A DNA stretch of 64,000 nt from Eremomyces bilateralis CBS 781.70 (GCA_010015585.1 ML975171.1); one strand, 5' to 3'; counted from the stretch's first letter, positions 5,346-58,435 are shown. The notes: generated by a model not told the origin, from the letters alone. Translations and numbers: made by a program.

Positions 5346-6536
5346 TTAAGCCGACTTCCTGATAAGTTTCAACTGGAGGTACGCATCCCTTTTCGAGTTC
5401 AACTTTTCTCCCAAAGGCGGTTGCTCCTCCCCAGCCCAATCCAAGTTCCAATCGTTTCCAATACAATGGGCGAGTGAACCTATTAATAATGCAATCATTC
5501 TGAACCCAAAACCGGTCGATGAAGCTGGACATTCAAAGTTTCCAGCCCCAAAGGGCATGAATCCTGCTTCCAATTCAATCTTCTTGAGCTTCCTTTCCAC
5601 ATTTCCCTCTTCGTTGAACATCTGCCAGAGCTCCGGTCTAAAACGAAATGGATCATCCGAAAAGACTGCCATGTTATGATGACATCGTTCGACGTCAGCC
5701 ACCATTTTGCCCTCTGCTTGACCGTCGATGTCGGTGAAGTCTCGATAAATATGACGGGTAGGAGGATACAGCCGCAAGGTTTCCTTCACAATATCTTTGG
5801 CAGATGGATGTCCAGACCGACGATCCTGGAAATCGGCTCTAGAAAGATCTTGGCGCATGCGCTCCAAAGTTTGGAGCCAAATTTGTTGGTCAGGGGCATC
5901 GCGAAACTTGACCTCCAGCAAGCCGCGCAAAACGACTCGCCACATAGTCTCGTAAGCAGGGAGGATTTTGTTAAAGGGATTCGTTGCCTTATTAAGGGGG
6001 TCATGTTTCCCCTGATCTTGAAGCACTTTACGCAGAGCCTGGTACATCTCCACCTCATTCCCCCACTCCGAGTTGTTTTCCTCTTTTGATGTAATCCATA
6101 TCTCGTTGGTTCTTCGGGCGAGCAGCCTGATGGCGTCTTGAGCTGATTCGCTTTCGATATGATCCGTCTCGTCTGCGAAAAACATGCGGAATACGATCTT
6201 GAGGGTAGAGAACTGGATCAATGATGCCAAATATACCTTATCGCCATGTTTATGAAGCTCAGCGGCAACATAACTCTGACAAAGATCGCGGATTTGGCCC
6301 ATGTCTTGCCAGTCGTACTTCTTCATCACTTTAACTGCCGACCTTTTAAACTCGCTGTAAATCTTAGGATCATCTGTTGTGAATGAGTTCTGAATCCCAA
6401 ATGATTGAACTAGTCGTTTATTCGGTTGCATTCTAGCCGCAAGGCGGTTATCCCTTCCGAAGTCATTGCAAGTAATGATGCCGCGTGTGCGGTTGACCAA
6501 GCCGTTCGAATCTTGGTGATTGAGTGGTGTAGCCAT
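5346..6536 (-). CDS. Divergent cytochrome P450
   Basis: PAYET (I-helix-like), ETLR (ExxR), PFRFRPE (PERF-like) and FGAGNFEC (heme Cys) motifs; single exon, 396 aa. Confidence 0.85.
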   Translation of the reverse strand: MATPLNHQDSNGLVNRTRGIITCNDFGRDNRLAARMQPNKRLVQSFGIQNSFTTDDPKIYSEFKRSAVKVMKKYDWQDMGQIRDLCQSYVAAELHKHGDKVYLASLIQFSTLKIVFRMFFADETDHIESESAQDAIRLLARRTNEIWITSKEENNSEWGNEVEMYQALRKVLQDQGKHDPLNKATNPFNKILPAYETMWRVVLRGLLEVKFRDAPDQQIWLQTLERMRQDLSRADFQDRRSGHPSAKDIVKETLRLYPPTRHIYRDFTDIDGQAEGKMVADVERCHHNMAVFSDDPFRFRPELWQMFNEEGNVERKLKKIELEAGFMPFGAGNFECPASSTGFGFRMIALLIGSLAHCIGNDWNLDWAGEEQPPLGEKLNSKRDAYLQLKLIRKSA

Positions 6537-6701
6537 TTTTGCGTAATTTCATGTTATTCTCCGTAAATGGTTTTCAAAAACTAAAGAATAACTTTCAAAT
6601 TTATTTACAGATGACTTCTAAACTCACTTTATACCAGCAAGTCTGATGACAGGCCAACGATGACCAGATATGTATTGAATCAAACAATCTACGATTGATT
6701 T

Positions 6702-6769
6702 GCTTCAATGACCACTTGTCTAGTTAAGACGGATAGCTTCAATGACCCCTTGTCTAGTTAAGACGGATA
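6702..6769. repeat. Tandem duplication, 34-bp unit x2
   Basis: gcttcaatgacc(a/c)cttgtctagttaagacggata occurs twice with one mismatch. Confidence 0.95.
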
Positions 6770-6902
6770 GTGACAAACTGAAATCTTCTGGCAAACAGCT
6801 TGACATACAAAGAGACGCTAAGTTGATAAACACATATTGAGATGCTGACTCACAATCATTCGTCACTTATACACAACACAACGAAAGAGGACCAGAAAGC
6901 CC

Positions 6903-6983
6903 CAAACGGCACTTCCAGTGCTGAACGACATGAAATCACGCAAACGGCACTTCCAGTGCTGAACGACATGAAATCACGCAAAC
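6903..6983. repeat. Tandem duplication, 38-bp unit x2
   Basis: caaacggcacttccagtgctgaacgacatgaaatcacg occurs twice exactly, followed by caaac. Confidence 0.95.
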
Positions 6984-7153
6984 TGTCCTGGAGAAGCTCC
7001 GAAATGGCAACTTAAAGTAATTAGCCTGTTGGATCGATCAATGATTAAATTAGATATTAGCAGAGCCTCAAAAAAACCGTAGACGGTTCTCTAGATGATG
7101 TCACATGAAATACTATCTCTTTGTTTCACTGACATAGACACTGACTTGAGAGG

Positions 7154-7258
7154 ATATCTGAAAGCTTGTATTTCAATGGAACTGGAAATGAGGAAAATGA
7201 TTCCTATTTTCAGAAACCTGCCAAATAGGAACCCAAATTTAGTACCCATGTTCTCAAG
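7154..7258 (+). repeat. Dispersed non-coding element, copy 1
   Basis: atatctgaaagcttgtatttc...gattcctattttcagaaacctgccaaataggaacccaaatttagtacccatgttctca aligns with the copies at 22423, 32870 and 47558. Confidence 0.85.
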
Positions 7259-7543
7259 CAAGGTTCTAATATTTCCAGAACTTTTTTAATACTAGCGTGC
7301 AGGTATTTCTTGGCAGGATTTTGTTAGGGTAAAACGTGCTTACGACGGGGGCAGGTTGTTATTTTCTCACCAATAACCGATGATCTGGCCTCTGGACTTG
7401 ACACACAAAATACGCGATCACGTGTGAATATGCTGGGTGGCTGGACAATCGACAGCTCCGCCGTAAAGCGCGTTGTTCCAATGTTCTTACATTTCTCCCG
7501 AACTTATTTGCGATAAAACGAAGCTCATAAGAAGAAATTACTG

Positions 7544-8839
7544 ATGGCCTCCGAAGGTAATTCTTGGCGGCAGTCCAAACCGGCGAATTTGCTCAGTTTG
7601 CTGACCTACTATCCGGTATGGGGCACTCTCTTGTCATATTTATGCCTGGCCGACTTCTTGGTGCTGTTCCAAGTGAGCAAAGGAATCCGCCGCAAGCTCA
7701 AGGACAACCTAGGACGGAAATGCTTGAACATTGACATCCTACTGAGCAACTTCGTAACCCACCCTGATATATTCCGATCTCAGCTAGGAAAGCACGATGC
7801 CTTGATCTCAGGAGGGTTCGCCCTTAATTTCTTCGAGTTGAGCCGTTGGACAGTACTAAATATGGACGTTTTCGTCCCATCTGGGGTCCACGCGACTGAG
7901 TTCACAGACTACATATGCAAACATGAGGGTTATAAGGCAAGCGAGGAATACAGCCAGGAAGCTGAGACAGTAAGGAACTTGTTCTGTTAAAGGATCTAGT
8001 GTGAATATTGAATCATTGCTGACTCTGTTATGCAGGGTCGAGGTCATTTCAACTTCAACAGTGGCAAGCGGCCCGGCAAAACCCTTCGAGTAACAGTGAC
8101 AGATGGGCCCCCAATTCAAACTATTCTTGATTCCTCGTACACAACAGCGAGCATCAATTTCATCACATGGAATAAGGCGTACTCGATCTTCCCTATACAA
8201 ACCGTTATCCATCACAAACTCTATGCACTTAAGCCTATGGATGAGGACTTTGGCTCAGTCCTGAATGAGCTGAGCAATCAAGGCTGGACGACTCGAGATA
8301 TCATATGGCCGGAATTAGCTGCGGATGCTCAGTCCCATGAAATTAGTGGCTATCGCCGAGTCGGTGATCAATCCACTTTGGTTATCCTGCTGCATACCTA
8401 TAACGTCCAGAAAGCATCGACACCGGATTCCGTGACCGAGTATGCTCAGTTTGAAGTCTCTACAAACTCTGTACCACCATTCTTTGAACAGGACCGCTTG
8501 CCGAATACACAGATTCAATTGCAGCGGTTAGTATCACCTGCTTTGCGCTATGAATACACGTTTGGCAAAAGTTCATGGCATGATTTTGTGTCCAAAAGAC
8601 TACAACGCTGGGCCTGGGTCGAGCTGTATAAACTGGAACCGGGAAAGCGTCCCTTACAGTTCACGGATGGCATTCCGCACTACTTTAATATTTCCTTTCT
8701 ACAAGACTTTCAGACGCCGGAGACTTGGGACTACGCTGATGATCAAATTCCCGCATGGTATCTAGAATGGGAGCAAATTACGATAGACAGATCAGACAGA
8801 AAGGGTCGAAGCCGACATCAAGGTCGTCATATCTTGTAA
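7544..8839 (+). CDS. Hypothetical protein with possible N-terminal F-box-like segment (ISGGFALNFF-type motif)
   Basis: Two ORFs joined in phase 0 by intron 7970-8035 (GTAAGG...TGCAG). The N-terminus LLSYLCLADFLVLFQVSKGIR resembles an F-box. Confidence 0.6.
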
Positions 8840-9623
8840 CCGAACGTAGCACATTCACGTCGCGCTTTAGCAGAGGTAACGAATTACGCGCCCTGAGGTA
8901 TATGCTAAGCCGTAAGCAGAATGAGAGTAGGTTTCGTCAGTGTAAGGGTCTCACTGTAGGGAATCTCCAATCGTGAGGCAAACATTGAATTGTTGCTATG
9001 AAGGAGGAATCTATCTAAAGTGTGCGAGGCGTTATGTCCTGATGCTGCACAGCAAACGGGCCACAAGGCATCCAGGTCCGCGGACCTCTGATCCATCACA
9101 GTCAGAGTTGGTACACTGTTATAGAGAGATTAGGGTTTCACGTTGTTTGGAGAACCATCTTGAGCGCCTGGGGCTTTCTGGCTCCGTTCTTAGACTGCGG
9201 CTGAGTGTTTGTGGGAGAATGTAGGACCAGGTTTGTGGGAAGAGTGGTCGTAGGGGAGGAGTGGTCGTGGGAGAGCAAGAGGCAGTGAGAATAGGATCGT
9301 GGGGATAGGTAGAGCGTTCGAACTGATATGTGCTGGCAAGACGTCACTCACCACACACTTGGGCGGAAACATTTTCGCCCATGCTCAACAGGATGTGGCG
9401 ACTTACTCCAACCATAACATCATTTCAGCTATTATGCAGAATCACGTTACTACCTCTTTGCGGCTGTCGATCCAATAGTCCTGCATTATAACATCATTCA
9501 AGAAAGAACACACGGATAATCGACGGAGAGTAGGTCCTGCTGACACTGATACTTCTATTGGATTATTATCAATTGAGACCCCTCCCCACAAGAGTGTAGC
9601 GCCCGAGCTCAGGCGAGCCCAAT

Positions 9624-10883
9624 ATGCCCCCTTCTCCTCTCAGGAGAATCCTGGGGGAAGCAATGGCACCCCCCCCCGAACCCCCCGCTATCACCACGTC
9701 GAGGGCTGGACGCCAGCTCAGGATGTCCGCGAGGGCCAAAGCCAGAGCCGCCGAGACAGAAGGGCTAGACGAACTGCCTCAACGCGAGGCTGCGAGAAGC
9801 CAGGAGGGAAGCCCGGAAGCGAGCGAAGCGAACATCACCCGAGTCCTCCAAAGCGCTCTTACGGCGATCGACCGGAAGATCGACACGCGGATGAACGAAC
9901 TAATAGATGAGAACCGTCTATTGTCCGGAAAGCTCGTAGATGCGACGGGCAAGCTCCATATCATGGAAAACCTCTTTGAGGACATGAAACGGACTATAGA
10001 AAAGCTAGAATGCCAGATAGCGAGCTTATCTGTCGCATCGAGCCCGCAACCTAGCGTGCAGGCGAGATCGTACGCAGCAGTCACTGCACCCGGATCGAAA
10101 AGCCAGTCGAGTGCACCGTCATTGCTGTCGCCGTCCATCGCCGTCACCCCACCAGACTCATCCCCCGGACTTCGCCCTATCCCCGACCATATCGTGGGTA
10201 GTGTGCCTACCATAAGGACGTCCTCGGTAAGACGAGCCCAACACCGCCCGCCGATGGTCAGCCTCAACCTGACGGATACACGTTATGGGTCATCCTCGCC
10301 CGGCGCGCTTAAGGAAGTAATGAACAAGGCTCTACAAAGTGTTACCGAGACAAAGAACTGCAAATGCGTAGCGGTGACAAACCGTCGTCTAGATAATGTC
10401 GGGTTCGCCCTCCGATCACAAGAAGAAGCCGACGCCGTCGTAGCAGCAGCTCCATGGACCAACGAACCAACCCTCCGGGACGCTAAGCTGGCGATAAGAG
10501 AGGAACACAAAGTTAAGGTGACGGGAGTCGACAAGCTGGTAGTTGGTGACCCCGAAGCTGGAAAGCGAATTAAAGCCGATATTGTGAAGAGTATCAATGT
10601 CGAAAATGGCGCCCAGATCCAAGGCATGCGGATACTCAGCCGCCCCTCCGCCCATCCCCGGATTCAACTTGTGGTATTCTGTAAATCCCAAGACGAGAAA
10701 GAACGCCTCCTTAACCAAGGGTTTATCTCGATTGAAGGGGAATACGCACCGATTGAGGAGTTCTTCGATTCGCCACGCAGCAGGCGATGCTTCAGATGCC
10801 ACGGACTTAACCACAACGCGGCGGATTGCACTATAGAAGTAGGCACTGGAAGCGTCTCCCAAGTTGAACCTGATGAACAGTAA
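9624..10883 (+). CDS. LINE ORF1, gag-like nucleic-acid-binding protein
   Basis: Coiled-coil-like segment plus C-terminal CCHC knuckle RCFRCHGLNHNAADC. Confidence 0.9.
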   Translation: MPPSPLRRILGEAMAPPPEPPAITTSRAGRQLRMSARAKARAAETEGLDELPQREAARSQEGSPEASEANITRVLQSALTAIDRKIDTRMNELIDENRLLSGKLVDATGKLHIMENLFEDMKRTIEKLECQIASLSVASSPQPSVQARSYAAVTAPGSKSQSSAPSLLSPSIAVTPPDSSPGLRPIPDHIVGSVPTIRTSSVRRAQHRPPMVSLNLTDTRYGSSSPGALKEVMNKALQSVTETKNCKCVAVTNRRLDNVGFALRSQEEADAVVAAAPWTNEPTLRDAKLAIREEHKVKVTGVDKLVVGDPEAGKRIKADIVKSINVENGAQIQGMRILSRPSAHPRIQLVVFCKSQDEKERLLNQGFISIEGEYAPIEEFFDSPRSRRCFRCHGLNHNAADCTIEVGTGSVSQVEPDEQ

Positions 10884-13800
10884 ACCCCTCAAAGTACTAC
10901 AAGCCAATATGAGGAAGATGCCGGAAGCGCAACACGCGCTCCTAAACGACGACGCACTCCGAGACATCGGCGTTATACTAATCCAGGAACCATCCTGCTT
11001 TATCGCGAACGACGGCCGCATAATAGCGGCCCCGACCATGCACTCAGCCTTTCAACAGTTCCTCCCAAGCAAGAATCACGAGGAGCTAAGGTATCCGGTC
11101 AGGTCCCTTATCTACGCAAGTCATCAGCTACGCCCAAGACAGATAGCGGTCCCGTCGCCGGACATTACCGCAATCGAGGTGGAATTCGACGGGCGAAACG
11201 TACTCTTTATCTCGGTCTATATACAGCAGGACAACACAATAAGCGACAGTGAGACCACTGTCCAATCGGCGCTAGGTTTGATCGAACCGGTACTCGCGAG
11301 GCTCCCTACCCACGATGTCCTCGTTGCGGGTGATTTTAACCGCCACGATCAACTATGGGGTGGAGACTCAGTCATGACCAACGAAGGGGAGGCTATCGTC
11401 CAGTTTATGCATGAACGCGGACTTCAACTTACCCTCCCAAGGGGTACCCCTACGCATAACTCGGGCACGACAATCGACCTTACGATGGTATCTAGCCGTC
11501 TCTACGACGACCTACTCCGATGCTCCATTTGGCCAGTCGAATATGGATCCGACCATAGAGCGATCGAAACCCACTTCGACCTTAACCTGTACGATAGCAC
11601 AGATGAGCCGAGAAGGCTATTCCGAAAAACGAATTGGACGAAGGTAGCAAAGAACACTAGAGAAGGACTGAAAGGGTTGCAAATCCCACCGAATAAAAAG
11701 ATCTTAAGGGAGGGAATCGATAAGTTTAGCACCCAGCTGGTCCAGATCGTCTCAGACGCGGTCCTCCGGGACACCCCGGTCGCCCGACCATCTGCGTTTT
11801 CGAAGAGGTGGTGGACACTAGACCTCACCAACCTTAGAAACGCGTACACAAGGGCCAGGAACGAAGCGGCGGCAACGCGCCGGGCCAGAACCCCTAATGA
11901 CCGCCTCGAGGCGAGGTCCAAAGAGGCGAGGAAGACGTTCCACGACGCAACCAGGAGGCAACGGAGGACCTGCTGGAAAGAGTTCCTTAACGATAACGAC
12001 AACGTCTGGAAAGCTGCGAAGTTCCTCCATCCAGCCCAGTCTAGCGCGTTTGGAAGGATCTCGGCCCTCCAAACTAATAACGAGCTGGCAACGACTGACC
12101 AGGCAATATCGAAGGAACTCCTCACCCAGTTCTTCGGTCAATCGGCAGACGCCCCGGAACCCCCGGCAACAGAGAACGGGCGACAACACCCCTGGGAAGA
12201 AATCACCAAGGAGGAAGTACGCGCAGCGGTCTATAGAGCCAAGCCGTTCAAGGCACCAGGGCCGGACGGGCTCCCGCCGATAGTCTGGCAGAGGCTTTGG
12301 CCCGAAGTAGGCGACCACATATATGTGCTCCTCCAGGCGTCCGTCCGAGAATCGTACCTCCCGGAACAATGGAAGATCGCACGGATCGTCCCGCTCCGTA
12401 AGCCAGGCAAGCCAGACTACACCCTAGCAAAGGCGTACAGGCCTATCTCCTTACTTACTACGCTAAGTAAGGCGCTAGAGTCAGTACTAGCCGAACGCCT
12501 GTCCTTCCTTGACGAGAAGTACGGGATCCTCCCTAAGGCCCACTTCGGGGCGAGGAAACAGAGGTCGACAATTGACGCCCTCCAGCTAGTTACAGAACAA
12601 AGTCTACCAGGCATGGAAACAGAAGAAGGTTCTCTCATTAATTAGCTTCGACGTGAAGGGTGCCTTCAACGGGGTCAACAGAACGGTGCTATGCCAGAGA
12701 CTCAGGGAACGAGGGATCCCGCCAGAGATTGTACGGTGGGTCCACGAATTCTGTGGCAATCGGAAGGCGTCGATCATGGTCAACGGCACAGAGTCGGAAG
12801 TTATGGACATCGACCACCCCGGGTTACCACAGGGGTCGCCGCTCTCACCCATCCTCTTCCTCTTCTACAACGCAAACCTCGTCGCAGGGAGGATGGTGGA
12901 CCAGTCGGGAACCATGGCCTTCGTGGACGACTTCACGGCGTGGGTTACCGGCCCAAACATGGGAAGTAATATCCGACGAATCCAGAGTCAGGTCCTACCG
13001 AAGGTTGAAAAATGGAGCCAGGATAGCGGGGCACTGTTCGAACCGGATAAGACCCAATTTATCCACTTCACGAAGCGTTTAAGACAGGACGAGGACGAGC
13101 TCCAGCCACTGGTATTTATGGGTCGCGACGTACCGCCGGCCTCAGAGGTCAAACTCCTGGGGGTAGTAATAGACCAGAAACTTGGGTTTCAATCCCACGC
13201 GAGGAGGGCGGCCAAACGAGGCGAAAAAGCGGCTATGGCACTCCAGAGGTTGAAGGGGCTCACCCCGAAGGCAGTCAGGCAGATATTTACAGCGACGGTC
13301 GCGCCAACCACCGACTATGGTGCTCCGATCTGGTTCCCAGGCTCCGCAGGGACAGTAGCCCGTCATATCGAGAGGGCCACCAAACTGGGGGCGAGCGCAA
13401 TCACGGCCATCTTCAGGTCCGCGGCGTACGACGTGGTAACTGCCGAGGCCGGGATCGAATCAGTCCAGGATAGGCTCTACGAACTAACGAGGAAACACTG
13501 GATTAAGATGCATACGAAACCACCGAACCACTATAGCTGGCGACTTATCCGACGCCTGCACAAAACTGAAAGGCATAGGTCACCTCTAGAAGCTACAGCG
13601 GAGATCCTCCAACACGTCAAACTAGATACGCTCGAGAAGGTAGAGGCGTTTGTTAAGCCGCCATGGCAAGACCCACCTTGCGTTGTGATCAACGAGGAGG
13701 CGATTGCAATCGGGAAGGCCACCCAGCTCGGCCTTAGAACCATTTTCACCGATGGATCATGTCGGAACGGCCTAGCGGGTATCGGGATCTATGCCCCGAA

Positions 13801-14656
13801 TATCCCACGTCTCCGTAAAGCTCGCACAATAGGAATAACACCAGGCGTCGATGCCCTTTATACAGAACTGGCCGCCATCTCGGAAGCCATCTCGGAAGCA
13901 GCCGTTAATATCCCCGCACTAGGCCTCGGCCTCGACCACTGTTATATCTTATCGGACTGTAAAAGAGCCCTCGATACGATCAAGACGCCACAGTGGAAAA
14001 GGAGTAGAACCCTCCAAGAGATCTTCCGGAAACTTGCAGAGACAAAGGAAAATGGATTCACGTTCACCTTCCATTGGGTGCCGGCACATAAGGGCGTCCC
14101 CGGCAATGAAGAGGCACACTCCCTTGCCCAATCCGCTACCTCTGCGGGATCGCAGCCGGAGGGGTACACTGAAATACTTCGACACGTAATCCGGCAAGGG
14201 CGAAGACAGCAGGGAGCGAAACGCACGGCTTTCCTGGCCAGGAAGACAGGGCGCTTCGTAAAGGCACTCGACAACGCACTCCCAGGCAGACATACAAGGA
14301 AACTTTACGACAACCTAACGAGAGTCCAAGCAGCGCTCCTCGTCCAAGTCCGATCAGGTTATAGCCGCCTTAACGGCTACCTCCACAGGATCACGAAGGC
14401 CGAAAGCAGCGCCTGCGAGTGCGGGGTAACTGAGACCGTCCGTCACTTCATCCTTGAATGCCCGATATGGGAATCTCAGAGGCGGCAGATAAGGACAATA
14501 GCTGGACCCCGAGCCGGAGACTTAGCGTATCTCGTCGGCGCATACGAATCCGAGGCCAAAGACGGTCCGATCAGGCGGTGGTCTCCGGACCTGAAAGCAG
14601 TGATAGCGACGATACAGTTTGTTAAAGATACAGGAAGACTAGACCCGGGGGTTTAG
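10873..14656 (+). pseudogene. LINE ORF2 (AP endonuclease, reverse transcriptase, RNase H, C-terminal zinc motif) with one frameshift near 12600
   Basis: ILIQEP, AGDFN and GSDH (APE); KAPGPDG, YRPISLL, GLPQGSPLSP and FVDD (RT); FTDGS and WVPAHKGVPGNEEA (RNase H); CECG...HFILECP. Removing one A at gaacaaagtc restores EQVYQAWKQKKVLSLISFDVKGAFN. Confidence 0.9.
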
Positions 14657-15607: not shown

Positions 15608-16540
15608 TAAATAATGGCGATAATTTCGAGATAAAATAAAGCTGCGGGAACCGGTTAAAGACTCACTTCTCCATGTTATAAGGAATGGCCGATTTTAATC
15701 ATCAGCTGGATGCATAAAGAGCACAGGTTTATGCAACAACGTTGCACAGCATAACCAACCGGTGAGTTATTAGATTTCTAGAGCGGGTAGAGATACTTAA
15801 TGCATGTTGGCAATGTACCAGGCAGAGGAGAAGATTCCTAAAACCGAGACTTAAAAGCGAGTTCTCATGATTCTGAAAACTGCTCTCAGGTTCGAAACTG
15901 CTCCAGCTAAAAATAGAAACCTCCACAGTCGCCGCTTATCCAATACCATATAGTTGATTTTTCCAGTCTCTTTACAGTATTGTATCAGAACTCTGCATCG
16001 GAAATGACGTTGGGAAGTACCTATGATAGAGCTTGACCGGAAGAATCCTGGCGAGGAACCGGAGAATGCTCCCCGCTTCCTATTGCTGTTTTCAGATACA
16101 CCGGAATGCGAGACTTCGACGATTGGACAGCGTAGGACGGCGCTCTCCAGATAGTACAGCTGATACTATCAATGCAATGATATAATTTCTTATAACTGTC
16201 TCATCCTCGCCTGCATTCTGGGTTCTGTTGGAAATCAGAGTTTATTACTTAGTCATCACACAAGATTCCTTTCCTTATTTTGTACCTTACGTAATCCTAG
16301 TTATATCTACCTTGCAAGGTTTTCTACCTTTCACAAATACAAGCATCTCATTCCATCTGTCGGAAAACCTATTGTTTCCGTGGTCGATTAACACGTTTAA
16401 ACCAATCAACAGGTTCGCATCGTTCGATTGTACGTCTAAAATATTATCCGGAGCCATTTAAGACTTCTACGATCACTTAAATCCTCTACTACTTCGGTCC
16501 TAATTTGGCATAAACTCAACCAAGAAGAGCTCACACCAAG

Positions 16541-18337
16541 ATGTCGCAGGACCAAAAATGGCCTTCGCTTGAAACGATCCGAAACGAACGCGGGAGGTCC
16601 CTGAATCAATGCATCATTGACACCTATAAAAACCAAGACGAATCAAATTGGAAGTCTCTTAATTTCTCCAGAAGATTGAAATGCTTTTATCTAGGTCGGA
16701 GGAGGGGCTTAAGGACAATCACTTTAGATGCTTCCAAAGGCCAAGCAGATTATGTTGCCGTCTCCTATCCTTGGCATCCATCTCCAGGCGAAAATGACTC
16801 ACGAGGGGGATACTCACTCGAGAGCGGGGAACGCACTCAGGTTCGCGACATTGTTATCGATAGGATCATCGATTTCATCAAAGATACCGGAGAGATGATA
16901 CCTTTTTGGGTGGACCAGCTCTCCATCAACCAAAAAGATGAAAGCAAGAAAATGGTTGCCGTCAATTCTATGGATCTTGTATATAAGAACTGTCTGTACG
17001 CTGTTGGGCTCCTTGCGGCTAATATCCAAACCCAACAAGAGATGGATCTTCTTGCGCGGTTCATGAACGGTGACTTTTCCCAACAGCAAACCTGGAAGCT
17101 TAGATTGCTAGCCCTCTTGTTCCGCATTGTTAGTGATCAATTCTGGGAAAGAGCTTGGATATTTCAAGAAGATTACATGGCTGGAATGAAAATGTGGCTC
17201 CTTATCCGTCATAAACCTGGTCTTCAGAAACCTTCTCATCTGGGGACTCTCCCAGAGGATATTAAGATCCAATCATTTGATTTTAAAGACAGGGCCACTA
17301 AGTTCTGTTTAAGATATCGCAAACACCCAAAGATCAATGCCTCTGCGAAAGAGTGGTGTAACACCATTCTCCAAAAGGCACCCAAATATTCTGCGCTTCA
17401 CGACTATGGTTATGATGGCTATGGGAGCCGGAGCCAAAAATCCATGACGATCCGTATCCTAGAAGACTTGGGTAGTCGTGGCATCAGGCACCAAAAAGAC
17501 CTTTTGCCAATTATTGCCAATGTCTGTGGCTATGACCGTCGCATTAGTACCAAAGACAACACATTCTCAAGTGTCAGTCTGAGCCTCATGACTCAACATC
17601 TACTAAATGGAGAAATTATTAGGAACGATATAAGGGGTAATACTGAAAAGGGTGTTTTCGATTTCCTAGCAGGCCAAGCCCTGAATATAGATGTTCCTGA
17701 TTCCCTAGGTAGTGGAGCATCGACCTTTATTAAGCATTGCCGACTCTCGGTTATCAACCTTTCCCGAACTGGAATTCATGCTAGTGGGATTCTTTGGAAG
17801 TCTTACAAACGGATCCCACCATATAATCACTGGAATCGGTGGAGAGATCCAAAATTATATCTACTTGATTTCCTTCGCCGTGAAGGGCATCATCCACTTG
17901 CGGAAGATATTGAGAGAGTTTTCTTTCCAATAAATAGCACACCACCTGGATGGTCAGCTGGACGAGTGCAGGAAATCATGGCTGATCATATAGTCGATGA
18001 AGTCAAACAAGGGAAATCCCTCCGACTGGCACGTCCAGTTGGTGACGGTTCTCTAAAAAGAAGCCCCTACCGTGGTATCTTTACTTCAGATAACCCGGAA
18101 GACTCGGATACATATGTTTTCACATCTTGGGACCGGGCAGGGGAATATATACGACACGGTAGGAGTATGACGACTCCAGCCAATTTCGCCTTTTTAGAAG
18201 TCGAACATAACGGAACTCGATATAGAGCAACAAGATTAAGAACAAAACAGTGGGTAAATGGATTGTTCTTCTTCTCCGGGGAATCACTACATGAATTCGT
18301 TTTTCCATTGCCAGAGGCACTATTTGGTCGGCCATAA
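16541..18337 (+). CDS. HET (heterokaryon incompatibility) domain protein
   Basis: YVAVSYPW, FWVDQLSINQ, MDLVY and FWERAWIFQE match the three conserved HET blocks. Confidence 0.9.
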   Translation: MSQDQKWPSLETIRNERGRSLNQCIIDTYKNQDESNWKSLNFSRRLKCFYLGRRRGLRTITLDASKGQADYVAVSYPWHPSPGENDSRGGYSLESGERTQVRDIVIDRIIDFIKDTGEMIPFWVDQLSINQKDESKKMVAVNSMDLVYKNCLYAVGLLAANIQTQQEMDLLARFMNGDFSQQQTWKLRLLALLFRIVSDQFWERAWIFQEDYMAGMKMWLLIRHKPGLQKPSHLGTLPEDIKIQSFDFKDRATKFCLRYRKHPKINASAKEWCNTILQKAPKYSALHDYGYDGYGSRSQKSMTIRILEDLGSRGIRHQKDLLPIIANVCGYDRRISTKDNTFSSVSLSLMTQHLLNGEIIRNDIRGNTEKGVFDFLAGQALNIDVPDSLGSGASTFIKHCRLSVINLSRTGIHASGILWKSYKRIPPYNHWNRWRDPKLYLLDFLRREGHHPLAEDIERVFFPINSTPPGWSAGRVQEIMADHIVDEVKQGKSLRLARPVGDGSLKRSPYRGIFTSDNPEDSDTYVFTSWDRAGEYIRHGRSMTTPANFAFLEVEHNGTRYRATRLRTKQWVNGLFFFSGESLHEFVFPLPEALFGRP

Positions 18338-20265: not shown

Positions 20266-21728
20266 CCCAGCGGGTGACACAAAAAGCGAGACTCACAAAT
20301 TGCCGATGTTTGCCCGCCCCCTTGCAAAGTACTCTGTAGATATCAACAATCAATAATTAATTCATCTGCCATGGTTTATACACGCTCTCAAGCTCAAAAG
20401 GCTTCTAAAAATGCCCAAAATCCCGGTCCTCACCATGATACTCCAAAAAAGTCCCGTGTTCGCGGCGAAATCGAGCATGAACGAGTGCGACGGAGACTAT
20501 ATGGTTTCGAGACGACGCCCTCGAACAATTCAATATTCCACCGTAACGGCATACCTAAATCATCCGGTTATCGAATTATAAAGTCTTCTCGAGGAAACCG
20601 ACGAACTTGTGAAAAAGAAACACGCGGTCGGAAGCCAATCATCAGCCCTACGCAGCTCGCAATGCTCGATCAGTTGGTAGAAGAGATGGACTCTCAAGAC
20701 AGAGAAATGACGTGGGAAACCCTCGCTACAGAGGCTGATATTGATTGCTCAGGACGTACGATACAAAGAGCAATGCAATCGCTTGATTACCATAAATGTA
20801 TCGCTTGTCGAAAGGCCTGGGTTTCAAAGCAATTGGCTACTAAGCGTGTCGCATACGCGAAAAAGATGCTCGCCAAATACCCTACGCCAGAGCACTGGAA
20901 ACACGTCAGATTTAGCGATGAAGTTCACTTTGGCCTTGGGCCCCAAGGCAAGACTTTGATTATCCGGAAACGAGGCCAACGGTATTGTTCAAAATGCATT
21001 CAACGCGTCGATGATCCCGATGAGGAAGATAAGAAGAAAGTCCACGCTTGGGCAGCCGTCGGGTACAATTTCAAAGGGCCACTCGTATTCTACGAGATCC
21101 CGAGCAATACAAACGGGAAGATGACGCAGGAGTGCTATCTTAACGATATCCTAAAGCCTGTCGTTGGCGGATGGCTCGTAAATGGAGACTATTTCGTGCT
21201 TGAGGAGGATCAGGATAGCGGTCACGCACCACCAAGATCTACGAAGACAAAGCCTTCCGCCGCCTCGAGGTGGAAAACGGAAGTAGGACTTCATTGTTTC
21301 TTTAATTGCGCAGGATCTCCGGAGCTCTCGATCATCGAGGACTGTTGGCAACCGATCAAAAGATATGTAAGGAAATACAGGCATTGGGAACCCGAGGAAA
21401 CGGTACAATTAGCAAAAGAGGCATGGTACGAGCGTCTTAATCAGGAATGGATTAATAAACGGGTGCTTTCTATACCTGATCGGCTACGTAAAGTCATCGA
21501 GTCTGATGGGCAGCTTATTGGTTATGGCGGTGGAATGCCGGGCTAACCGCCACGCTTTTTATATATATACAAAAGCTATGGGTGCGAATAGCTTCAAACT
21601 TGCTTATATTCAAATTGAAATTAATTTAGTTACGTGGTTGTTGAGATATCCTATATTGTATACAAATTTGTATGGTGTGGTGGTGCCAAGCCCAATTATG
21701 AGTCTCGCTTTTTGTGTCACCCGCTGGG
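20266..21728 (+). mobile_element. Tc1/IS630-like DNA transposon with ~30-bp perfect TIRs
   Basis: TIR cccagcgggtgacacaaaaagcgagactca at both ends; direct duplication ctggg at 20261-20265 and 21729-21733. Confidence 0.95.
20371..21546 (+). CDS. Tc1-like DDE transposase, intact
   Basis: RGRKP and HTH-like region; FSDEVH, LEEDQDSGH and SPELSIIEDCW supply the catalytic triad. Confidence 0.92.
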   Translation: MVYTRSQAQKASKNAQNPGPHHDTPKKSRVRGEIEHERVRRRLYGFETTPSNNSIFHRNGIPKSSGYRIIKSSRGNRRTCEKETRGRKPIISPTQLAMLDQLVEEMDSQDREMTWETLATEADIDCSGRTIQRAMQSLDYHKCIACRKAWVSKQLATKRVAYAKKMLAKYPTPEHWKHVRFSDEVHFGLGPQGKTLIIRKRGQRYCSKCIQRVDDPDEEDKKKVHAWAAVGYNFKGPLVFYEIPSNTNGKMTQECYLNDILKPVVGGWLVNGDYFVLEEDQDSGHAPPRSTKTKPSAASRWKTEVGLHCFFNCAGSPELSIIEDCWQPIKRYVRKYRHWEPEETVQLAKEAWYERLNQEWINKRVLSIPDRLRKVIESDGQLIGYGGGMPG

Positions 21729-47716: not shown

Positions 47717-48298
47717 CTGTCGCATTACGAGGGGGTGATGATTAAGCATTCTCTGCATAAGCTTAGTTATTGTATAGACACAGCGCAAGTTATATTGACA
47801 ATCCCCATTGTCTCTCCAGGAGAGAGATAGCTAGCTGTTGAAGATATATGTAAATATATAGGAAAAGACAGAGCCTTCCAAAATAGGCTTAGCCTAGGGG
47901 TAATGGGCAGGAAAAGGAGTGTTAGGTGGCAGTATAAAACAACAGGGGCATCTTGCGACAGGCGCTACCTATGGTAGCGTCCTCAAAACTGAGGATAACT
48001 GGGTAATTAGTGGATAACAGGGGTACGCATAGGCGCCAAAATGGGATTAAGAAAGCGACGAGCGAATACCAATCGTTGCAGGCAATAAGACGTGCGTGGT
48101 ATTATGGCCATAAGTGATAAGACAGGGAAGGGAGCTCAATTTCTTCCACACCGTATGGTGGTTGAACATACCAGCCTGCCTTTTGCCTGGCTGTCTTCGC
48201 TTTCCCCCTCCTTTGAATCTCCCTTCAGCTTGATAGTTGCATTTGCTTCTCATTCACTCCCTGAAGAATTCGTGTCCTTGTCTCACTAGCTGCAAAAG

Positions 48299-49631
48299 AT
48301 GGCAGAGCCGATCAGTTTAGCGTCAGGACTAATCACATTTGTGGTGTTCGCGTTGAAAACCAGCACGTCGCTCTACGAGGCTGTTGACAGTTTCAAGACA
48401 TCTCAGAGGGCTATTCGTGAGCTTAGGAGTGAGCTCAGCGGACTGCAAGCAGTCTTACTGTCTTTGCAAGAGGCGGCTTCCAACTCGACCGTGAAGCTGG
48501 ATGTTCTGCAGGTCCCATTGCAACGATGTGGCAAGGCTTGCCAGGAATTTGAAGAGGTCATTGCCAAATGCACGGCACATTCTGGCGGATCGAGGGAGAG
48601 TTTTCGGGACTGGGCGAAGATACGGTATATGGGAAATACTATTGAAGGGTTCAGACGGACGTTAGAAGTCTATAAGTCCACAATTACGATTGCACTTGGA
48701 GACGCGAATATGTAAGTATGACTTGGATCTTTAAAAGTAATAACTCATGTTCTTGCATAGTCGCACAAGCGTTGTTACCGTCGAGGTCCTTCAGGAGTAC
48801 AGACAGCTGATTGATGATACTGTGTCGGATCTGCGAGATCATCTCCAAGAAATCAATAACAAGCTGGAGAGTCTCACGTCTCAGGGCCCAAGTCTGTCCA
48901 TTGAGGATTCCAACGAGGTCCAACGCATCCAGGAGGAAAAAGAAAGCACCCAACAGTGTCTGCTTATCTGTGCAGATGTTGCCGCTCATGTTGATAATAC
49001 CCGACCGAAGGTACTTGAGAATCTCTCCACTCCAGACGACGGCTACCAAAGCCTGATGAACACGTCACGTGCTCAAGTTTCAGCTCGAGCGGCTACCGCC
49101 AAAACTCTCCAGGACTGCGGAAGAATGCTGCACAGCACAACCTCCAAACTCGAGAAATATCTTCGAGAGATCGAAAACCGACTCGATACCATGGATTCTA
49201 CAGCCATCAGACCGTCACAACATCAAATCTCTGAGGAAGCAAGCATAAGAGAAGAGCGAGACAGCATCCAAAAATGCATTGAGATTGTTGGCAACGCTTC
49301 TGATCAAGCTGACCAAACACGCACGAACGAATTCGAAGACATCACCATGGCTGATGACGGCCATCAAGTGATTGTGTCTACACTCGGAGATCTGATATCA
49401 GCCAGACGCATCACGGTCGGAAATCGATCAATACAATGGCTTGGACAAATGTCTGATGAGTCACTCCAGAAGCTCTCAGGCGACCATCGTCACTTTGTCC
49501 CCGAGAAATTTGAGAGAGCACAATCAGGAATTGTTGCAGAGTTTGGGGATCGGCATGGGCCTGGACGCAAGCTTGAACCGGATGCTCGAAGTGGAGCGAA
49601 CCCTGTCACAGCCAAAGAACGCCTCACCTGA
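48299..49631 (+). CDS. HeLo-like (Helo_like_N/SesA-type) N-terminal domain protein with internal helical repeat and amyloid-like C-terminal motif
   Basis: MAEPISLASGLITF...IRELRSEL...CGKACQEF...SFRDWAK; intron near 48711-48760; EEKESTQQCL / EERDSIQKCI repeat. Confidence 0.8.
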
Positions 49632-49935
49632 CAATGGTCAGAGAGAAACTGTATTACTTGGAATTCGAGTTGCTACAGGAGAAGAAGAGAAAAGACGATT
49701 CTTCTACAGTAAGCTACACATGTCCTCTCCGTTGCGGTCCCTCATTATCATCTCTCAGACAATTACGGCACTATCATGCTCAGCACGAGGTGGGGACTGC
49801 GGGGGAATCAGCTATTGACGAGAGCAATTGAATTCATGCTATTGCTTTCCAAAATATTTGAATTAGAGTTGCCAGTGTCAAAATGAAATTGTAGAGCAAT
49901 CGAGCCTCTATCGTCAACAGCAGGCCATGCGGCTT

Positions 49936-51317
49936 CTATCTCTTCGGTGAGCTACTGAGCCTGCCCACTGCCGACCCAGTAGAAGAAATGGGAATTTCCG
50001 CAGTAGTACTAGATGTGAGCTTATAACTTCGCCCATACCGTTCCCGGTATTGTGAGTCAGGTTTGTGCTCTATCCCATCATCAGGGACGGATGGTGTATT
50101 GCCTCGCGAAGACGAGCTCTCGCTCCCGGTGTTCTGGAAGCTAATGCTTGAAAAGTCCCGTGATATCTTTTGGACGGTGGCATCACTGAGGTGGCCTCCG
50201 ACCTGCCTCGTTCTCCACCCAAGTCCTCGATTAGTACCATGAAGAGTCTTACCATCAGTCGAAACCATAAACTGTACCGCATCTCCCGTGGCGTAGTTGT
50301 CAATGGTGCTGATATTTTTCTTCAAGTGGATGTCTGCTTTGGAGCAGATATCCCGGCACTGGCGGGCGGTATCCCACTCCTCCCGCAGCCTTGCAAGATC
50401 CGCAAGATCCTCTTCGGAGGTCGTCGCTGCCTTCGATTTTGCCACCAATCGGTCGATTAGATTTTTCATATGGTCTTCCAACTTTGCTGCAGTGAGAGCA
50501 AGGCTATTCTTGCATTCCTGCAGGCCATCCATGGTGAGCCTTTCAGGTACAGCACCTGGATCTATGTGCCCAGGAGAACTGCTATCACTCTCGGGTGTGA
50601 GCTGAATCTGATCAATGTGATCGGACAACCGGGCACAGATTTGAAGGCATTTCTGCGTGCTCATCTGCTCCTCCTTTATGCGTCGCAGTTCCGTTTCATC
50701 TGAGCCGGACTCGGTCACTGTGTGCCCAAATATGGTTTCGAGTTTTTCATCGATGCTTCGAAGATGAGTCTCCAGATCATCAGTAACAGTTTCGATAAGG
50801 TCCCGATACGCGTCAAGGCTTTCGGTAGTGACTGAGGACTTGCGACTAGTCAGGACAAAAATGGTTAGAGCTGCGATGAGTGCCAAGGAATACAGACTTA
50901 CAGACTTGCGTCCGTGAGCGCAATAATAATGGTAGACTTATATCCCGCCAGCAGTCGCCTGAAACCGTCGATGTCATCACCCATATACTTTAACTTGGCC
51001 CAGTCTCGAAAGCTCGTCCGATTACCACCGGACCGCGACGAACATTTCATAATTTCCTGCTCGAACTCTCTACAAGCATTGCCGCATCGCAGCAAGGGAT
51101 GATCGAGAGCAGAGAAGTCTACGTCAGTAGTGGCACTGACTGTCTCGGTGAGCGAGCGCAGCACCTCAGTTAAGGCCTCAAGCTCTTCTTTGAGATCGCG
51201 GACTTGTTTAGGATGAGATTGAAAACTCTGGACCGTCTTGACAAGGGCGATGCTGCTTTTGAAGGCAAAGATAGACAAAGTCAGCAGCCCGGAACTCAGC
51301 CCTATAAGTTCTGCCAT
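49936..51317 (-). CDS. HeLo-like N-terminal domain protein, paralog of 48299-49631, convergently transcribed
   Basis: MAELIGLSSGLLTL...VRDLKEEL...CGNACREF...SFRDWAK; intron at the same position, after IALTDAS; EEQMSTQKCL / EEWDTARQCR repeat. Confidence 0.8.
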
Positions 51318-51719
51318 TGCGGCAGTCAATTTGTTGAGATATAAGGCAGTCGAAGCAGGCAAGAAGTTGATCCTTATAATTAATGAAGAATTCTGGTATC
51401 GAGATGTGTGAAGGCTGTGTACTCTACGGGTAGCTTATTAATAGCTGGAAACTCCAATCAGGTGAGGGTCGTAAGCGCCCACTTTGCCAGAGCAACATCG
51501 ATCGAGAGAGCAACCTGAATGGTATGAACGCGGTCGCCCATTTCTCCTTAGCCAATACCGTTAATTATGGGCACACCTTAATTATCTTACGGAATTTGAC
51601 GAGTCTCTGATCCAGCGTCTTCATTTCTTGCTTTCTCGATTACCGCCAGCCTTGGTCAGAGCAGTGGTTTCATTTAGATTAACTGACACATTTGAGCAAT
51701 CCGGTCCATCACTGTCGCG

Positions 51720-56176: not shown

Positions 56177-58435
56177 TCAAATAATTGTAATGGTATATTT
56201 ATGGCCTCCGTCTCCATCACGACGAAAATCGATCCCCTCCTCTTCCGCTCTAGAGTCGAACCATCGAAGACCTGCCTCAACAACATCCACAGCTTCCGGG
56301 CCCAACGCATGGAATACCCCCCAGCGCCGATATTGTCCACGTGGACCACATGCCTCCAACATAAGGCCGTGAAAATATGGGTCTCCGTTCAAGTCGGTAT
56401 CGAGTATTGGCAGACAATACAAGTTGTTGTGTTTAAAGGGCATCTTGAAACCGTGGATACTCTGCCTATCCATATAGCAGACAATATTGGCGGGCATCAA
56501 ACAATCCGCCCAAACAACCACTTGAAAATTCGGGCAGCCCACTCTCATTCGGAAGAGCCTCCCCTCGAGACAGACCGACCCGCCTTTGATCCGACCGAAG
56601 GCGTTTTCTCCTTCTAGCTCAACCCTAACACTCTTTATCGTAATGATTGCGGCGCGTCGACCCTCGGATTTATCATTGCTGACACCCTTGATTTTGCCAT
56701 TGACAGACGCCCAGGACCAAGAAGGGGCAAGGTATTGTTTCGGTTTCGAACTTTGGGAGTCGTCGCAGTACCACAGCAGTTGATATTCGAAATAACGACG
56801 CCAGAGCCCAGCGAGATAGGAATCCCCTAGTGCTCGATGCATCGCCTCTGCAACGCCTCCGATAGCGATTAGCTTATCGGTCTCGCGTTTTAAGCCAGCT
56901 TTTGTGTACCGCTCTACAATAGAGTTCCACAAATCATGTGCCACAATATCAAGTATTTTGGAGGAAACCATATCCAGGTCATGTGCGCTCTCATCCAAAA
57001 CGCTCTTATACGTCACTGTTAGCGCCTGGTCTATACTCGTCAGGGACCGGCTCTCAACACAGGGTGGAACTCCGAAAGGAAATGACTCGCATGCAAGGGA
57101 CTCATTGCATTCCCAGAAAACCTGCGTGGAAGCAAAATGGAGGATACGGGGTGCTAGTAATCGTTCTTGGCAAACCCAAGCCCTTTGGTTGAGAGGACCA
57201 CGCTCGACCTCTCTCTCCCACAACTGGTTATCGACGACATTGTGGGTAGACTTTCCTACTCTGACACGTAGAGGGTGAAGCGGGCGAGTATCGCGCGGTC
57301 TAAAGAGCCCCCCTGAGCCGTCCTTGGAGGCTGTGGCAGCGAGGTTGCAAGCTGAGTTCGAATACACCTGGCACATCTGAGCAGACTCTCTTCGCCAGTC
57401 CTCGTCAGAGTCAGAGTCTTGAATTATGCAGAGCGCATCAATCCATATATACTGGAACCCTAGTTCCTTGGTAATGATCAAGGCATCTTGAAATGATTTA
57501 GAGAGCTCCTTGAACCGGATGGATGTCATCATGTTTGTCAAGTCCCGTTGGAGTAGTCGTTTTGGGATATTTTCACCCCAGCAATGGCTCAGGGTCAAGT
57601 ATGGAGGTATTCCATCTATATCTGCTGAAATCCGAAGACGAGGCTGAATGTGTGCAGTGGTACCGACATCGACTAGCCTTGTAGGGAGTACAAAACCATT
57701 CTCGGCTCCTCGTAGACTCTTCAGGCATCGAGTATGGTACTTCGTACAGGTGGCTAACCAGCTCTGGGCTAGAGATATGGTCACAGGGGACCTGGTGGAT
57801 GACTTCAAACGCCGCGCATGTGCAGATAGGCCTTCGAAGCAAGGTTCTAAATTTAAATTAGCGTAGGATTTCCGTGAGAATAAAGCAAGTCAAGTACCAC
57901 CTGTGGACTCAGATAGATCGAGATGCTTGATTGCATGACCATTTAGTTCAAAATCATCATCATCATCCTGCCGGACTAACTTCCACGGAAGGAAGTAACG
58001 GAGTTCTAGGCTGAGTGATTCTACCCCAGCGAATTCGATAAGAGCTGCCGCGTAGTCGATCTTGAAACGCGACTGGTCCTCACCCATGATATCGAGAATC
58101 TGTTCGGTTTTATCGGTACTGTATCGGTGTCGGCGCATCAGGTCTCTCGTCTCTTTGGTAAGGGTTCCCAAGAACAGCAAGCATAGGGGACAATCCTTTC
58201 CCATAGTGTCTTCGTGCAATTCAGTGGATTGGATTAGATTTTCAGAGTAGAATTCCTCTCCTGCTGGGCGTCTGATTTTCCCACATCGTCGGAGTATTTT
58301 CCTGCACCTTGAGCACAGTGCGCGGTTGGAATACCTCTCGCGGAGCCGATACACAAGCCCTCTCGCCCTGGAAACCGGTATAATCTTCCTGGGTTCAGAC
58401 GAAGAGCTACAGAAGCTTACGTCTTTGCCTGACAT
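56177..58435 (-). CDS. HET domain protein with N-terminal Cys-rich region (start approximate)
   Basis: WLATCTKYH, LPTRLVDV, YLTLSHCWG, YIWIDALCIIQD, MCQVYSN, LNQRAWVCQE, YLAGLW and APSWSWAS; intron near 57850-57899. Confidence 0.92.

Follow-up and report, generated by a model that had tools for sequence, protein, structure and literature searches.

Two convergent HeLo-like genes of Eremomyces bilateralis with a candidate loop-less, HET-s-related two-rung motif

INTRODUCTION

Fungal amyloid signalling is known from short effectors that lie next to their nucleotide-binding oligomerization domain-like receptor (NLR) and whose motifs diversify fast. Two convergent paralogous genes of the Dothideomycete Eremomyces bilateralis (CBS 781.70, GCA_010015585.1, ML975171.1) raise the question of whether such a motif can serve longer proteins that stand apart from a receptor, and whether two neighbouring copies act together or separately. 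Gene A (plus strand) and gene B (minus strand) occupy positions 48299-51317 of the window, the whole 64,000-nucleotide (nt) stretch analysed here, and encode products of 427 and 441 amino acids (aa), respectively. A preliminary description of the locus had proposed that each product ends in a HET-s-like two-repeat motif and that the pair forms a two-component cell-death, allorecognition or toxin-antidote module, working through hetero-amyloid or heterodimer assembly.

In the HET-s architecture, shared by the HET-s-related amyloid motifs (HRAM1-5), two pseudo-repeats are stacked parallel and in register and are joined by salt bridges (PMC4518210, Daskalov et al. 2015). Here we examine the C-terminal parts of A and B, their relatives and their surroundings. 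On a slight balance of probability, A and B are mutually independent paralogues of the HeLo-like executioner type, each switched by an amyloid motif that would be a loop-less variant of the HET-s-related type, with rungs of 21+2 residues.

RESULTS AND DISCUSSION

The C-terminal block is predicted to form two in-register rungs

In every subfamily of the family to which A and B belong, the most conserved part of the protein is a C-terminal block. Its pattern is N.FED....DD.HQV.VST.GDLISA.R.T.G.RS.QWLGQMSD.SLQ.LS in the A-type proteins and I.NYATGDA.QFMVST.G..IHG.NRG.GWR.RQVGGHLSD.SLQQLS in the B-type proteins, and in both types it is followed further downstream by F..R[YH]G.G.KL. No gap interrupts the block in any subfamily, which implies a linker of 2 residues between its two halves, hereafter termed rungs. 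In gene A, rung 1 (T326-D348; 49323..49391, plus strand) and rung 2 (L349-E371; 49392..49460, plus strand) form the predicted beta-solenoid-type motif. In gene B, rung 1 (I317-K338; 50248..50313, minus strand) is one residue shorter than that of gene A, and rung 2 (T339-A361; 50179..50247, minus strand) contains the conserved residues G348, R350, Q353, G356 and D360.

The AlphaFold2 (AF2) model of protein A, built on a 94-row alignment with a mean predicted local distance difference test score (pLDDT) of 84.8 and a predicted template modelling score (pTM) of 0.72, consists of a helical head and a long helical stalk, followed by strands. In the block, the strands 326-330, 333-334 and 339-344 recur at 349-353, 356-357 and 362-367, with an offset of 23 residues and a pLDDT of 84-93. 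The model of protein B (98 rows, mean pLDDT 79.4) repeats its strand pattern at an offset of 22-23, with strands 317-325 and 329-334 in rung 1 and 339-347 and 352-357 in rung 2 (pLDDT 71-84).

The same period emerged from residue covariation. Average-product-corrected mutual information (MIp) was calculated for 344 unique block sequences (effective number of sequences, 160), and 7 of the 20 strongest covarying pairs lay at a separation of exactly 23, as compared to 0.43 expected (hypergeometric p ~9e-8). Nine such pairs were among the top 50, and no antiparallel register was enriched in this set. In the numbering of protein A, the pair 340/363 is Q/Q in 332 of the 344 sequences. The pair 337/360 is D/R in 275, E/R in 17 and, with the charges swapped, R/D in 6; 331/354 is N/N in 144, D/R in 129 and E/K in 10; and 330/353 is E/K in 131, E/R in 66, D/K in 66 and D/R in 25. 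Small residues face each other at 335/358 (G/G in 164, A/G in 106), while 343/366 is V/G in 294. Protein A itself pairs E330 with R353 and D337 with R360. This covariation is the signature of two parallel in-register rungs connected by a ladder of Gln, at a second position by either an Asn ladder or a salt bridge, and by further salt bridges.

Two in-register stacked pseudo-repeats, the arrangement that characterizes HRAMs, are indicated for the block, and we read the period of 23 as an HRAM-like core of 21 residues plus 2. When the block profile was compared with itself using BLOSUM scores, the top diagonal also fell at offset 23, without reaching significance (its score was attained in 990 of 2000 column shuffles); the two rungs are complementary rather than similar. 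By homology, the blocks of A and B should share the same two-rung fold. Single-sequence models of the ESM Atlas provided leads only: the structural neighbours of the block were the beta-helix families SufBD core, DUF4097 and LiaF-like_C (template modelling (TM) score <0.5), and for protein A also the PF11558 part of a HeLo cluster, at a TM score of 0.45, which is below the bar.

Two further conserved elements follow the rungs. In gene A, a helix directly after rung 2 (D370-H383; 49455..49496, plus strand; AF2 helix 370-383) carries the family pattern SD.SLQQLS and is conserved in both family alignments examined; its counterpart in the AF2 model of protein B comprises residues 360-377 (50131..50184, minus strand). 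The distal aromatic/glycine motif, with the family pattern F..R[YH]G.G.KL, lies at F399-L409 in gene A (49542..49574, plus strand), where it is conserved in both alignments and modelled with a pLDDT of ~50-60, and at Y405-L415 in gene B (50017..50049, minus strand), where G410 and L415 are invariant in one of the two alignments.

A sister branch pairs the block with a single rung on a NACHT receptor

To see what adjoins the family genes, we considered 50 flanking open reading frames (ORFs) of at least 230 aa from 39 representative loci. They were drawn from 107 listed ORFs, the other 57 being the family genes themselves, antisense overlaps and ORFs of near-identical loci. NACHT-type (NPHP3_N) ORFs adjoin a family gene only in L059, L068 and L077.

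In L059 and L068, the NACHT receptor is arranged head-to-head with a one-module family member, that is, a protein composed of the head, one helical module, the block and the tail; the two genes are ~280 bp apart in L059. In both loci, the first exon of the NLR is a short ORF, whose Met lies one codon after a stop, and it encodes 21 residues (MNIKDVYVGAGATQIIQVKPE in L059 and MNLNHVHAGAGATQIIQVNRE in L068). A GTTAGT donor, a CTAAC branch point and an AG acceptor allow an in-frame join to the NACHT exon. When these peptides were aligned with the neighbouring effector, the best local alignment was gap-free, started from the first residue and fell on rung 2. Shuffled peptides matched its score in 37 of 5000 cases for L059 and in 1 of 5000 for L068. 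The core G.GATQ occurs, among 21,924 ORF pieces, only in the two effectors and the two NLR exons of these loci, at the place where most family members have G.RS.Q. At one position the two loci co-vary, D facing R in L059 and H facing H in L068.

As judged from the sequences, the arrangement is that of NWD2 and HET-S, in which the neighbouring NLR carries one copy of the effector repeat at its N-terminus, apparently evolving in concert with it (PMC4518210). The single-rung copies on the NLRs argue that intermolecular stacking is the natural function of the block in the one-module branch. The HET-s-like two-repeat motif of the preliminary description therefore gains support from three sides, namely the pairs at separation 23, the strand repeat in the AF2 models and the rung-2 copy on a NACHT receptor.

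At the third locus, L077, a 1471-aa NACHT-WD40 ORF (7773-12185, minus strand) is convergent with an A-type gene (6001-7285, plus strand) and appears as an all-in-one NLR. It has an N-terminal domain of its own, lipase-like by eye (GHSMGG), and shows no copy of the motif.

How the block of A and B might act

In both A and B, a HeLo-like (HELL) four-helix bundle, which would target membranes as MLKL does, is followed by a stalk of duplicated hairpins, the two-rung motif, and then a helix and the aromatic/glycine motif. By analogy with HET-S and NWD2, the tail would serve as a conformational switch: a template would stack onto it, the tails would polymerize, and the gathered heads would release their membrane-damaging activity. 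The template would be an oligomerized NLR displaying single-rung copies. For A and B, the trigger would lie outside the window, presumably encoded elsewhere. Amyloid formation, templating, membrane attack and insulation in A and B are all inferred.

The search for such a receptor bears on this proposal. The absence of an adjacent templating NLR, already noted in the preliminary description, holds: no NLR with the motif lies next to the pair, there is none of any kind within 46 kb of the two genes, and no cognate NLR was found in the window. An adjacent NLR with a single motif copy, as described for HRAM effectors, is hence missing for A and B; of the HRAM effectors themselves, only 98 of 155 have an adjacent NLR (PMC4518210). 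Single-rung hidden Markov models (HMMs) run over the ORF pieces of the window and the loci revealed no credible additional NLR-borne single rung (r0) and instead picked up paralogue fragments in L040, L011/L012, L044 and L073. Because a family-wide single-rung profile gives even the true r0 peptides just 5-8 bits, diverged r0s would be missed. The peptides of L059 and L068 had no match on the block of A or B.

Several observations weigh against an amyloid switch in A and B. Neither the window, nor the long proteins, nor the 50 flanking ORFs yielded an NLR whose rung matches that of A or B. Within the window, the single-rung HMMs gave nothing credible over the ORF pieces (best E 2.2), and a weak search of proteins of 749-2135 aa with residues 318-392 of A yielded 12 candidates, none at E <=0.01. 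The block is the most conserved part of the protein, and B-type proteins are 57-79% identical across fungal classes, which is unlike the fast-diversifying motifs of known NLR/effector pairs. The two C-terminal pieces matched zero Pfam families at E <=10, including PF11558 (HET-s_218-289) and the sigma-related models (PF17046 and PF17106). The strand pattern was taken from a DSSP string, which alone could also fit an antiparallel meander, so that parallel stacking is a reading of that string together with the covariation. Since AF2 draws on the same covariation signal, the model and the covariation count are not independent. Moreover, because AF2 folds the monomer confidently between two helices, the block could be a stable, capped two-turn beta-helix.

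This last point defines the alternative that survives best, although we consider it unlikely. The block would be a stable, non-amyloid two-turn beta-helix, capped by the helices 291-323 and 370-383 of protein A and having a fixed role in oligomerization, ligand binding or autoinhibition, with templating confined to the one-module, NLR-linked relatives. The confidence of the monomer models (pLDDT 84-93 in the block of A and 71-84 in that of B; whole-A pTM 0.72) fits such a domain, as do the contiguous rungs without a flexible loop, the conserved helix directly after rung 2, the very strong conservation across classes, and the lack of an NLR beside the A- and B-type genes, save for the NACHT-WD40 ORF of L077, which has no r0. 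Against such a domain, AF2 also folds known amyloid motifs as monomers. Two rungs alone would leave both sheet edges open, and solved non-amyloid beta-helices have, to our knowledge, more turns than two. Above all, the block of the sister subfamily is matched by the N-terminus of a single-rung NLR, which is sensible only for intermolecular stacking. We therefore still favour an amyloid switch in A and B over a capped domain.

A and B belong to separate subfamilies that usually stand alone

The question of whether A and B act as a pair was addressed through their relatives. The database protein corresponding to A (P0001), compared with 1.84 billion cluster representatives, matched 1344 proteins at E <=1e-3. 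In word-index searches, exon 2 of gene A retrieved 100 proteins from Leotiomycetes, Eurotiomycetes, Dothideomycetes, lichen-forming fungi and Orbiliomycetes, and exon 2 of gene B retrieved 619, the best 120 of which are 57-79% identical over their full length. The family thus ranges over Pezizomycotina classes, from Orbiliomycetes to Dothideomycetes. Among its longer proteins (461-867 aa), 7 of 8 contain PF17111 alone, and P0236 also has methyltransferase-type matches.

A quick IQ-TREE analysis of 55 hand-chosen full-length rows (28 named and 27 unnamed representatives, fragments excluded, midpoint root) placed protein B in a 20-row clade with short branches and an SH-like approximate likelihood ratio test (SH-aLRT) support of 100, and protein A in a separate 18-row group with longer branches and a support of 85. 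Terminal branches measure 0.05-0.4 in the B-type and ~0.04-1.2, mostly 0.3-1.2, in the A-type. On these grounds, A and B represent two old subfamilies, each conserved in its own right, and not a recent tandem pair. The B-type evolves much more slowly than the A-type, which is unusual for genes tied to non-self recognition.

Adjacency was surveyed in a metagenome contig scan with an alignment of both types, in which 79 loci collapsed into 55 groups at >=95% nucleotide identity; the loci were probed with the four exon translations (tblastn E <=1e-5). None of the 28 groups whose downstream flank reached 1.7 kb or more had a family copy there, as a tail-to-tail partner. An upstream, head-to-head copy was present in 2 of the 23 groups with at least 1.7 kb on that side. 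Where a locus included both flanks, a second copy was seen in 2 of 16 groups and a single gene in 14. The two positive groups, L011/L012 and L039/L040, have an A-type gene head-to-head with a B-type gene, ~400 bp apart. In Scytalidium lignicola, the A-type and B-type proteins are encoded on separate contigs (119,810 and 505,685 bases).

The partners of an obligate two-gene module would co-occur and remain adjacent. The counts instead indicate that the homologues usually stand alone and that the tail-to-tail layout is particular to this lineage, and it would represent a lineage-specific arrangement of two old paralogues. The two-component, toxin-antidote or hetero-amyloid module of the preliminary description gains no support here, given the rarity of partners, the separate clades and the differing in-register positions; that homologues usually occur singly had been named there among the outcomes that would refute it.

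The block points in the same direction. A and B differ at in-register positions (for example, D/R in A versus N/N in B, and I/I versus Y/R), their exons 2 are just 33% identical, and each block is close to those of its own orthologues, with identities of up to 87% over the block, which together look like insulated specificities. These sequence relations suggest that A and B are two insulated pathways rather than a cognate pair.

The opposite case is that A and B cooperate, by cross-templating, by hetero-oligomers formed via tails or stalks, or as a toxin/antidote or allorecognition pair whose adjacency is kept for co-regulation. We regard this as somewhat more doubtful than a capped domain, and retain it as a minor alternative because A-B adjacency recurs elsewhere, in the other orientation; this recurrence in a second lineage counts against full independence and leaves room for some functional linkage. 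Cooperation would suit two adjacent, convergent genes that are crossed by one RNA-derived contig and whose tails share the same predicted fold, as well as the head-to-head pairs, which extend adjacency to more than one lineage. It is at odds with the missing convergent partners, the prevalence of single genes, the separate contigs of S. lignicola and the very unequal numbers of matches (100 for the A-type versus 619 for the B-type). In addition, the low identity between the exons 2 of A and B, set against that of each block to its orthologues, shows no concerted evolution of the kind that PMC4518210 describes for cognate pairs, and the in-register specificity positions differ between the types. 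Two separate executioners, each with its own tail, accommodate these observations better.

Two loci of the survey contain partial copies. L011 (2572-7345; also L012 and L040) harbours a four-member cluster with an ATG17-like ORF upstream: two short convergent ORFs with the C-terminal block only (2572-2988, plus strand, and 3212-3835, minus strand) are followed by the A-type (minus strand) and B-type (plus strand) genes in head-to-head orientation. In L044, a frameshifted block fragment (2351-2611, minus strand) has rungs 1 and 2 in different frames; situated 3.4 kb upstream from a B-type gene, it probably represents a decayed paralogue.

Gene models, head domain and stalk

Gene A consists of exon 1 (48299..48711, plus strand), a 49-nt GT..AG intron in phase 2 (48712..48760) and exon 2 including the stop codon (48761..49631), which encodes the end of the PF17111 region, the second helical module, the C-terminal block and the tail. 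Gene B, on the minus strand, consists of exon 1 (50902..51317), a 56-nt GT..AG intron in phase 2 (50846..50901) and exon 2 including the stop codon (49936..50845). A spacer of 304 bp (49632..49935) separates the two stop codons. The models of A and B are 100% identical to the database proteins P0001 and P0101, respectively.

A 3487-nt contig of the public run X1 spans both genes and lacks exactly their two introns (GT..AG and CT..AC). The run was typed 'RNA?' by guess, and its RNA origin is taken from the absence of both introns in this contig. Since an assembly of DNA would retain the introns, genes A and B are taken as transcribed and spliced as modelled. The spliced contig corresponds to window positions 47781-51372 and is continuous across both convergent genes and the spacer. 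The 3' ends of the A and B transcripts must therefore overlap or abut. One contig over both genes does not equal one single transcript.

The N-terminal domains of both proteins belong to Pfam family PF17111. Exon 1 scored 182.2 bits for A (E 1.1e-53; profile positions 1-137) and 193.5 bits for B (E 3.7e-57), as compared to a gathering cut-off of 27.2. The rest of the profile is found at the start of exon 2 in both genes, where the first 71 residues cover positions 139-209 with 101.9 bits in A (E 4e-29) and 81.1 bits in B (E 9.8e-23). PF17111 is currently named PigL_N and was earlier named Helo_like_N, and it is the 'HeLo-like (PF17111)' of the amyloid-signalling literature (PMC9815663). The HELL and HeLo domains are homologous to the four-helix bundle of MLKL, and the family has been tied to the HeLo/MLKL executioners (PMC12881547, PMC9815663). 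The AF2 models predict an N-terminal helical bundle with a hydrophobic first helix in both proteins, with helices 5-30, 37-62, 68-93 and 115-140 in A and 4-30, 37-62, 69-94 and 116-141 in B (pLDDT 90-98).

The head is followed by a stalk that arose by internal duplication of ~90 residues. The copies are 31% identical over 91 aa in protein A (BLASTP E 2e-15) and 23% identical over 73 aa in protein B (BLASTP E 4e-6), and a profile comparison of residues 112-225 with 226-335 by hhalign gave a probability of 99.5% (E 2e-22). In gene A, the second helical-hairpin module, residues 226-323, is the duplicate of 112-225 and is encoded at 49023..49316 (plus strand), with AF2 helices at 246-285 and 291-323. 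The linker after module 1 matched the first 30 block columns weakly (hhalign probability 47.5%, E 1.9e-4). The end of the head domain (STITIALGD...) was considered as a third copy of the beta element and was rejected (hhalign probability 0.2%).

Between A and B, exon 1 is 54% identical (74/138; E 2e-52) and includes SFRDWAK in both proteins, while exon 2 is 33% identical (79/241; E 8e-30), with an alignment that includes the C-terminal segments quoted in the preliminary description. Both introns are inserted at the homologous codon and share their phase. The preliminary description was correct in all of these respects: it had seen a shared N-terminal domain with SFRDWAK in two convergent genes, a shared intron position, a duplicated EE...Q.C helical module and C-terminal segments that are diverged yet alignable, and the Pfam search for Helo_like_N that it suggested matched PF17111 in both.

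Structure and sequence searches outside the family returned mostly helices. The whole 427-residue model of A, compared with known structures by Foldseek and VIA-align, gave only long-helix proteins (TM <=0.2; Z <=11.8 over residues 109-324, which is below the tool's bar for helical folds and leaves the beta block in effect outside the comparison), and the family profile run against PDB sequences gave coiled-coil noise only, the best match being prefoldin at E 0.005. It is very improbable that A and B are merely structural coiled-coil proteins that play no part in regulated cell death and whose PF17111 match reflects a helical bundle only: such generic structural matches and the report that PigL, the namesake of PigL_N, has no discernible function in pigment synthesis (PMC8241920) would accord with it, whereas the PF17111 scores far over the cut-off, the published link of the family to the executioners and the NLR-linked sister subfamily, which puts the family in NLR signalling, speak against it.

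Relation to known amyloid-signalling systems

A and B, as two candidate executioners switched independently of each other, resemble HET-S/NWD2 and the HRAM proteins: a helical executioner head is combined with a C-terminal motif in which two pseudo-repeats, predicted here to be parallel and in register, have opposite-charge pairs between the rungs. An aromatic/glycine segment follows the second repeat, as in HET-s, and in the sister subfamily the adjacent NLR begins with one repeat copy, as in NWD2. For a comparison by position, we propose a register that anchors N327 on position 3, which is N in canonical HET-s (PMC4518210). The consensus given in that paper has Gly at 19, hydrophobic residues at 5, 8, 10, 16 and 18, and R/K at 15. 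In the proposed register, positions 5, 8, 10 and 18 are mostly hydrophobic or small in the A/B family, and the charge pairs, at positions 6 and 13, coincide with two of the three HET-s salt-bridge positions. The Gln ladder falls on position 16, where HRAM5 also has Gln (PMC4518210). Gly occupies position 19 in rung 2 only, rung 1 having Val (the V/G pair), and position 15 is R only in rung 2 of the B-type, with no preference for R/K in the A-type.

Other features set A and B apart from HRAM proteins. Their rungs are joined by 2 residues, unlike the loop of 6-18 residues found in 154 of 155 HRAM proteins, with one exception in 155 (PMC4518210). PF11558, which A and B do not match, recognizes only 38 of the 155 (PMC4518210). 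The head is PF17111 and not the HeLo domain PF14479, and a duplicated helical stalk of 180 residues brings the proteins to 427 and 441 aa, as compared to the <=310 aa of the proteins screened in PMC4518210. The conserved helix after rung 2, the very high conservation and the lack of an NLR next door are further differences. The motif strings of A and B were absent from two supplementary files of PMC4518210 and from 11 of 13 of PMC9815663, and no description of the motif was found in the literature covered, which excluded subscription papers and bioRxiv supplements.

Like HELLF/FNT1 and HELLP/PNT1, whose effectors carry an HRAM or PP motif, A and B have a HeLo-like PF17111 head (PMC9815663) and a candidate C-terminal amyloid signalling motif, and L059 and L068 reproduce the effector/NLR layout. 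The PP (RHIM-like) motif, in contrast, is a single copy of ~20 residues with GxQxG (PMC5485727), a pattern absent from A and B: the surroundings of the conserved Gln read G-H-Q-V-I and S-I-Q-W-L-G in A, and A-V-Q-F-M and T-R-Q-V-G in B. Unlike HELLF and HELLP, A and B contain the additional stalk module and lack an adjacent NLR. With MLKL they share an N-terminal four-helix-bundle executioner, a helical 'brace'-like region and a C-terminal regulatory part, which is a predicted two-rung beta motif instead of a pseudokinase; the whole model of A had no structural match to MLKL.

A bolder version of our proposal, which we think improbable as a whole, is that A and B represent ancient, class-spanning lineages of amyloid-switched MLKL-like executioners with an undescribed contiguous 21+2 motif, detached from NLRs and triggered by unlinked receptors or by none, through self-nucleation, stress or modification. 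Where A and B have stayed neighbours, as in this window, limited cross-seeding of the two tails could then couple the death pathways.

The family is large and strongly conserved, has a longer architecture with the hallmarks of a HET-s-type two-rung motif, and is usually not NLR-adjacent, and the classical NLR/effector pairing persists in a small sister branch. Should the motif truly be amyloid, the sequence and geometry space of functional beta-solenoids would widen to loop-less rungs. The NLR-linked one-module proteins and the orphan two-module proteins A and B would then form a natural series for questions of trigger and insulation, and two differently 'coded' motifs in one genome would be available for the study of cross-seeding barriers.

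Neighbourhood of the two genes in the window

The only NLR in the window is encoded by ORFs with Patatin-like phospholipase and NB-ARC domains (1-2267, minus strand), ~46 kb away from the pair; it runs off the left window end and has an effector domain of its own. The A/B pair is situated in a region with mobile elements: LINE-like (long interspersed nuclear element) retroelement ORFs, with endonuclease, reverse transcriptase and RNase H, and a Tc1/mariner-type DDE transposase ORF occur at 10843-14656 and 20278-21546, both on the plus strand. ORFs of the BCS1-like AAA, kinase-like, APH-like and DUF7770 types lie at 36-46 kb, and two ORFs with a HET (heterokaryon incompatibility) domain lie at 16514-18337 (plus strand) and 56177-57889 (minus strand). 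Gene families that typify non-self recognition regions of fungi are abundant around A and B.

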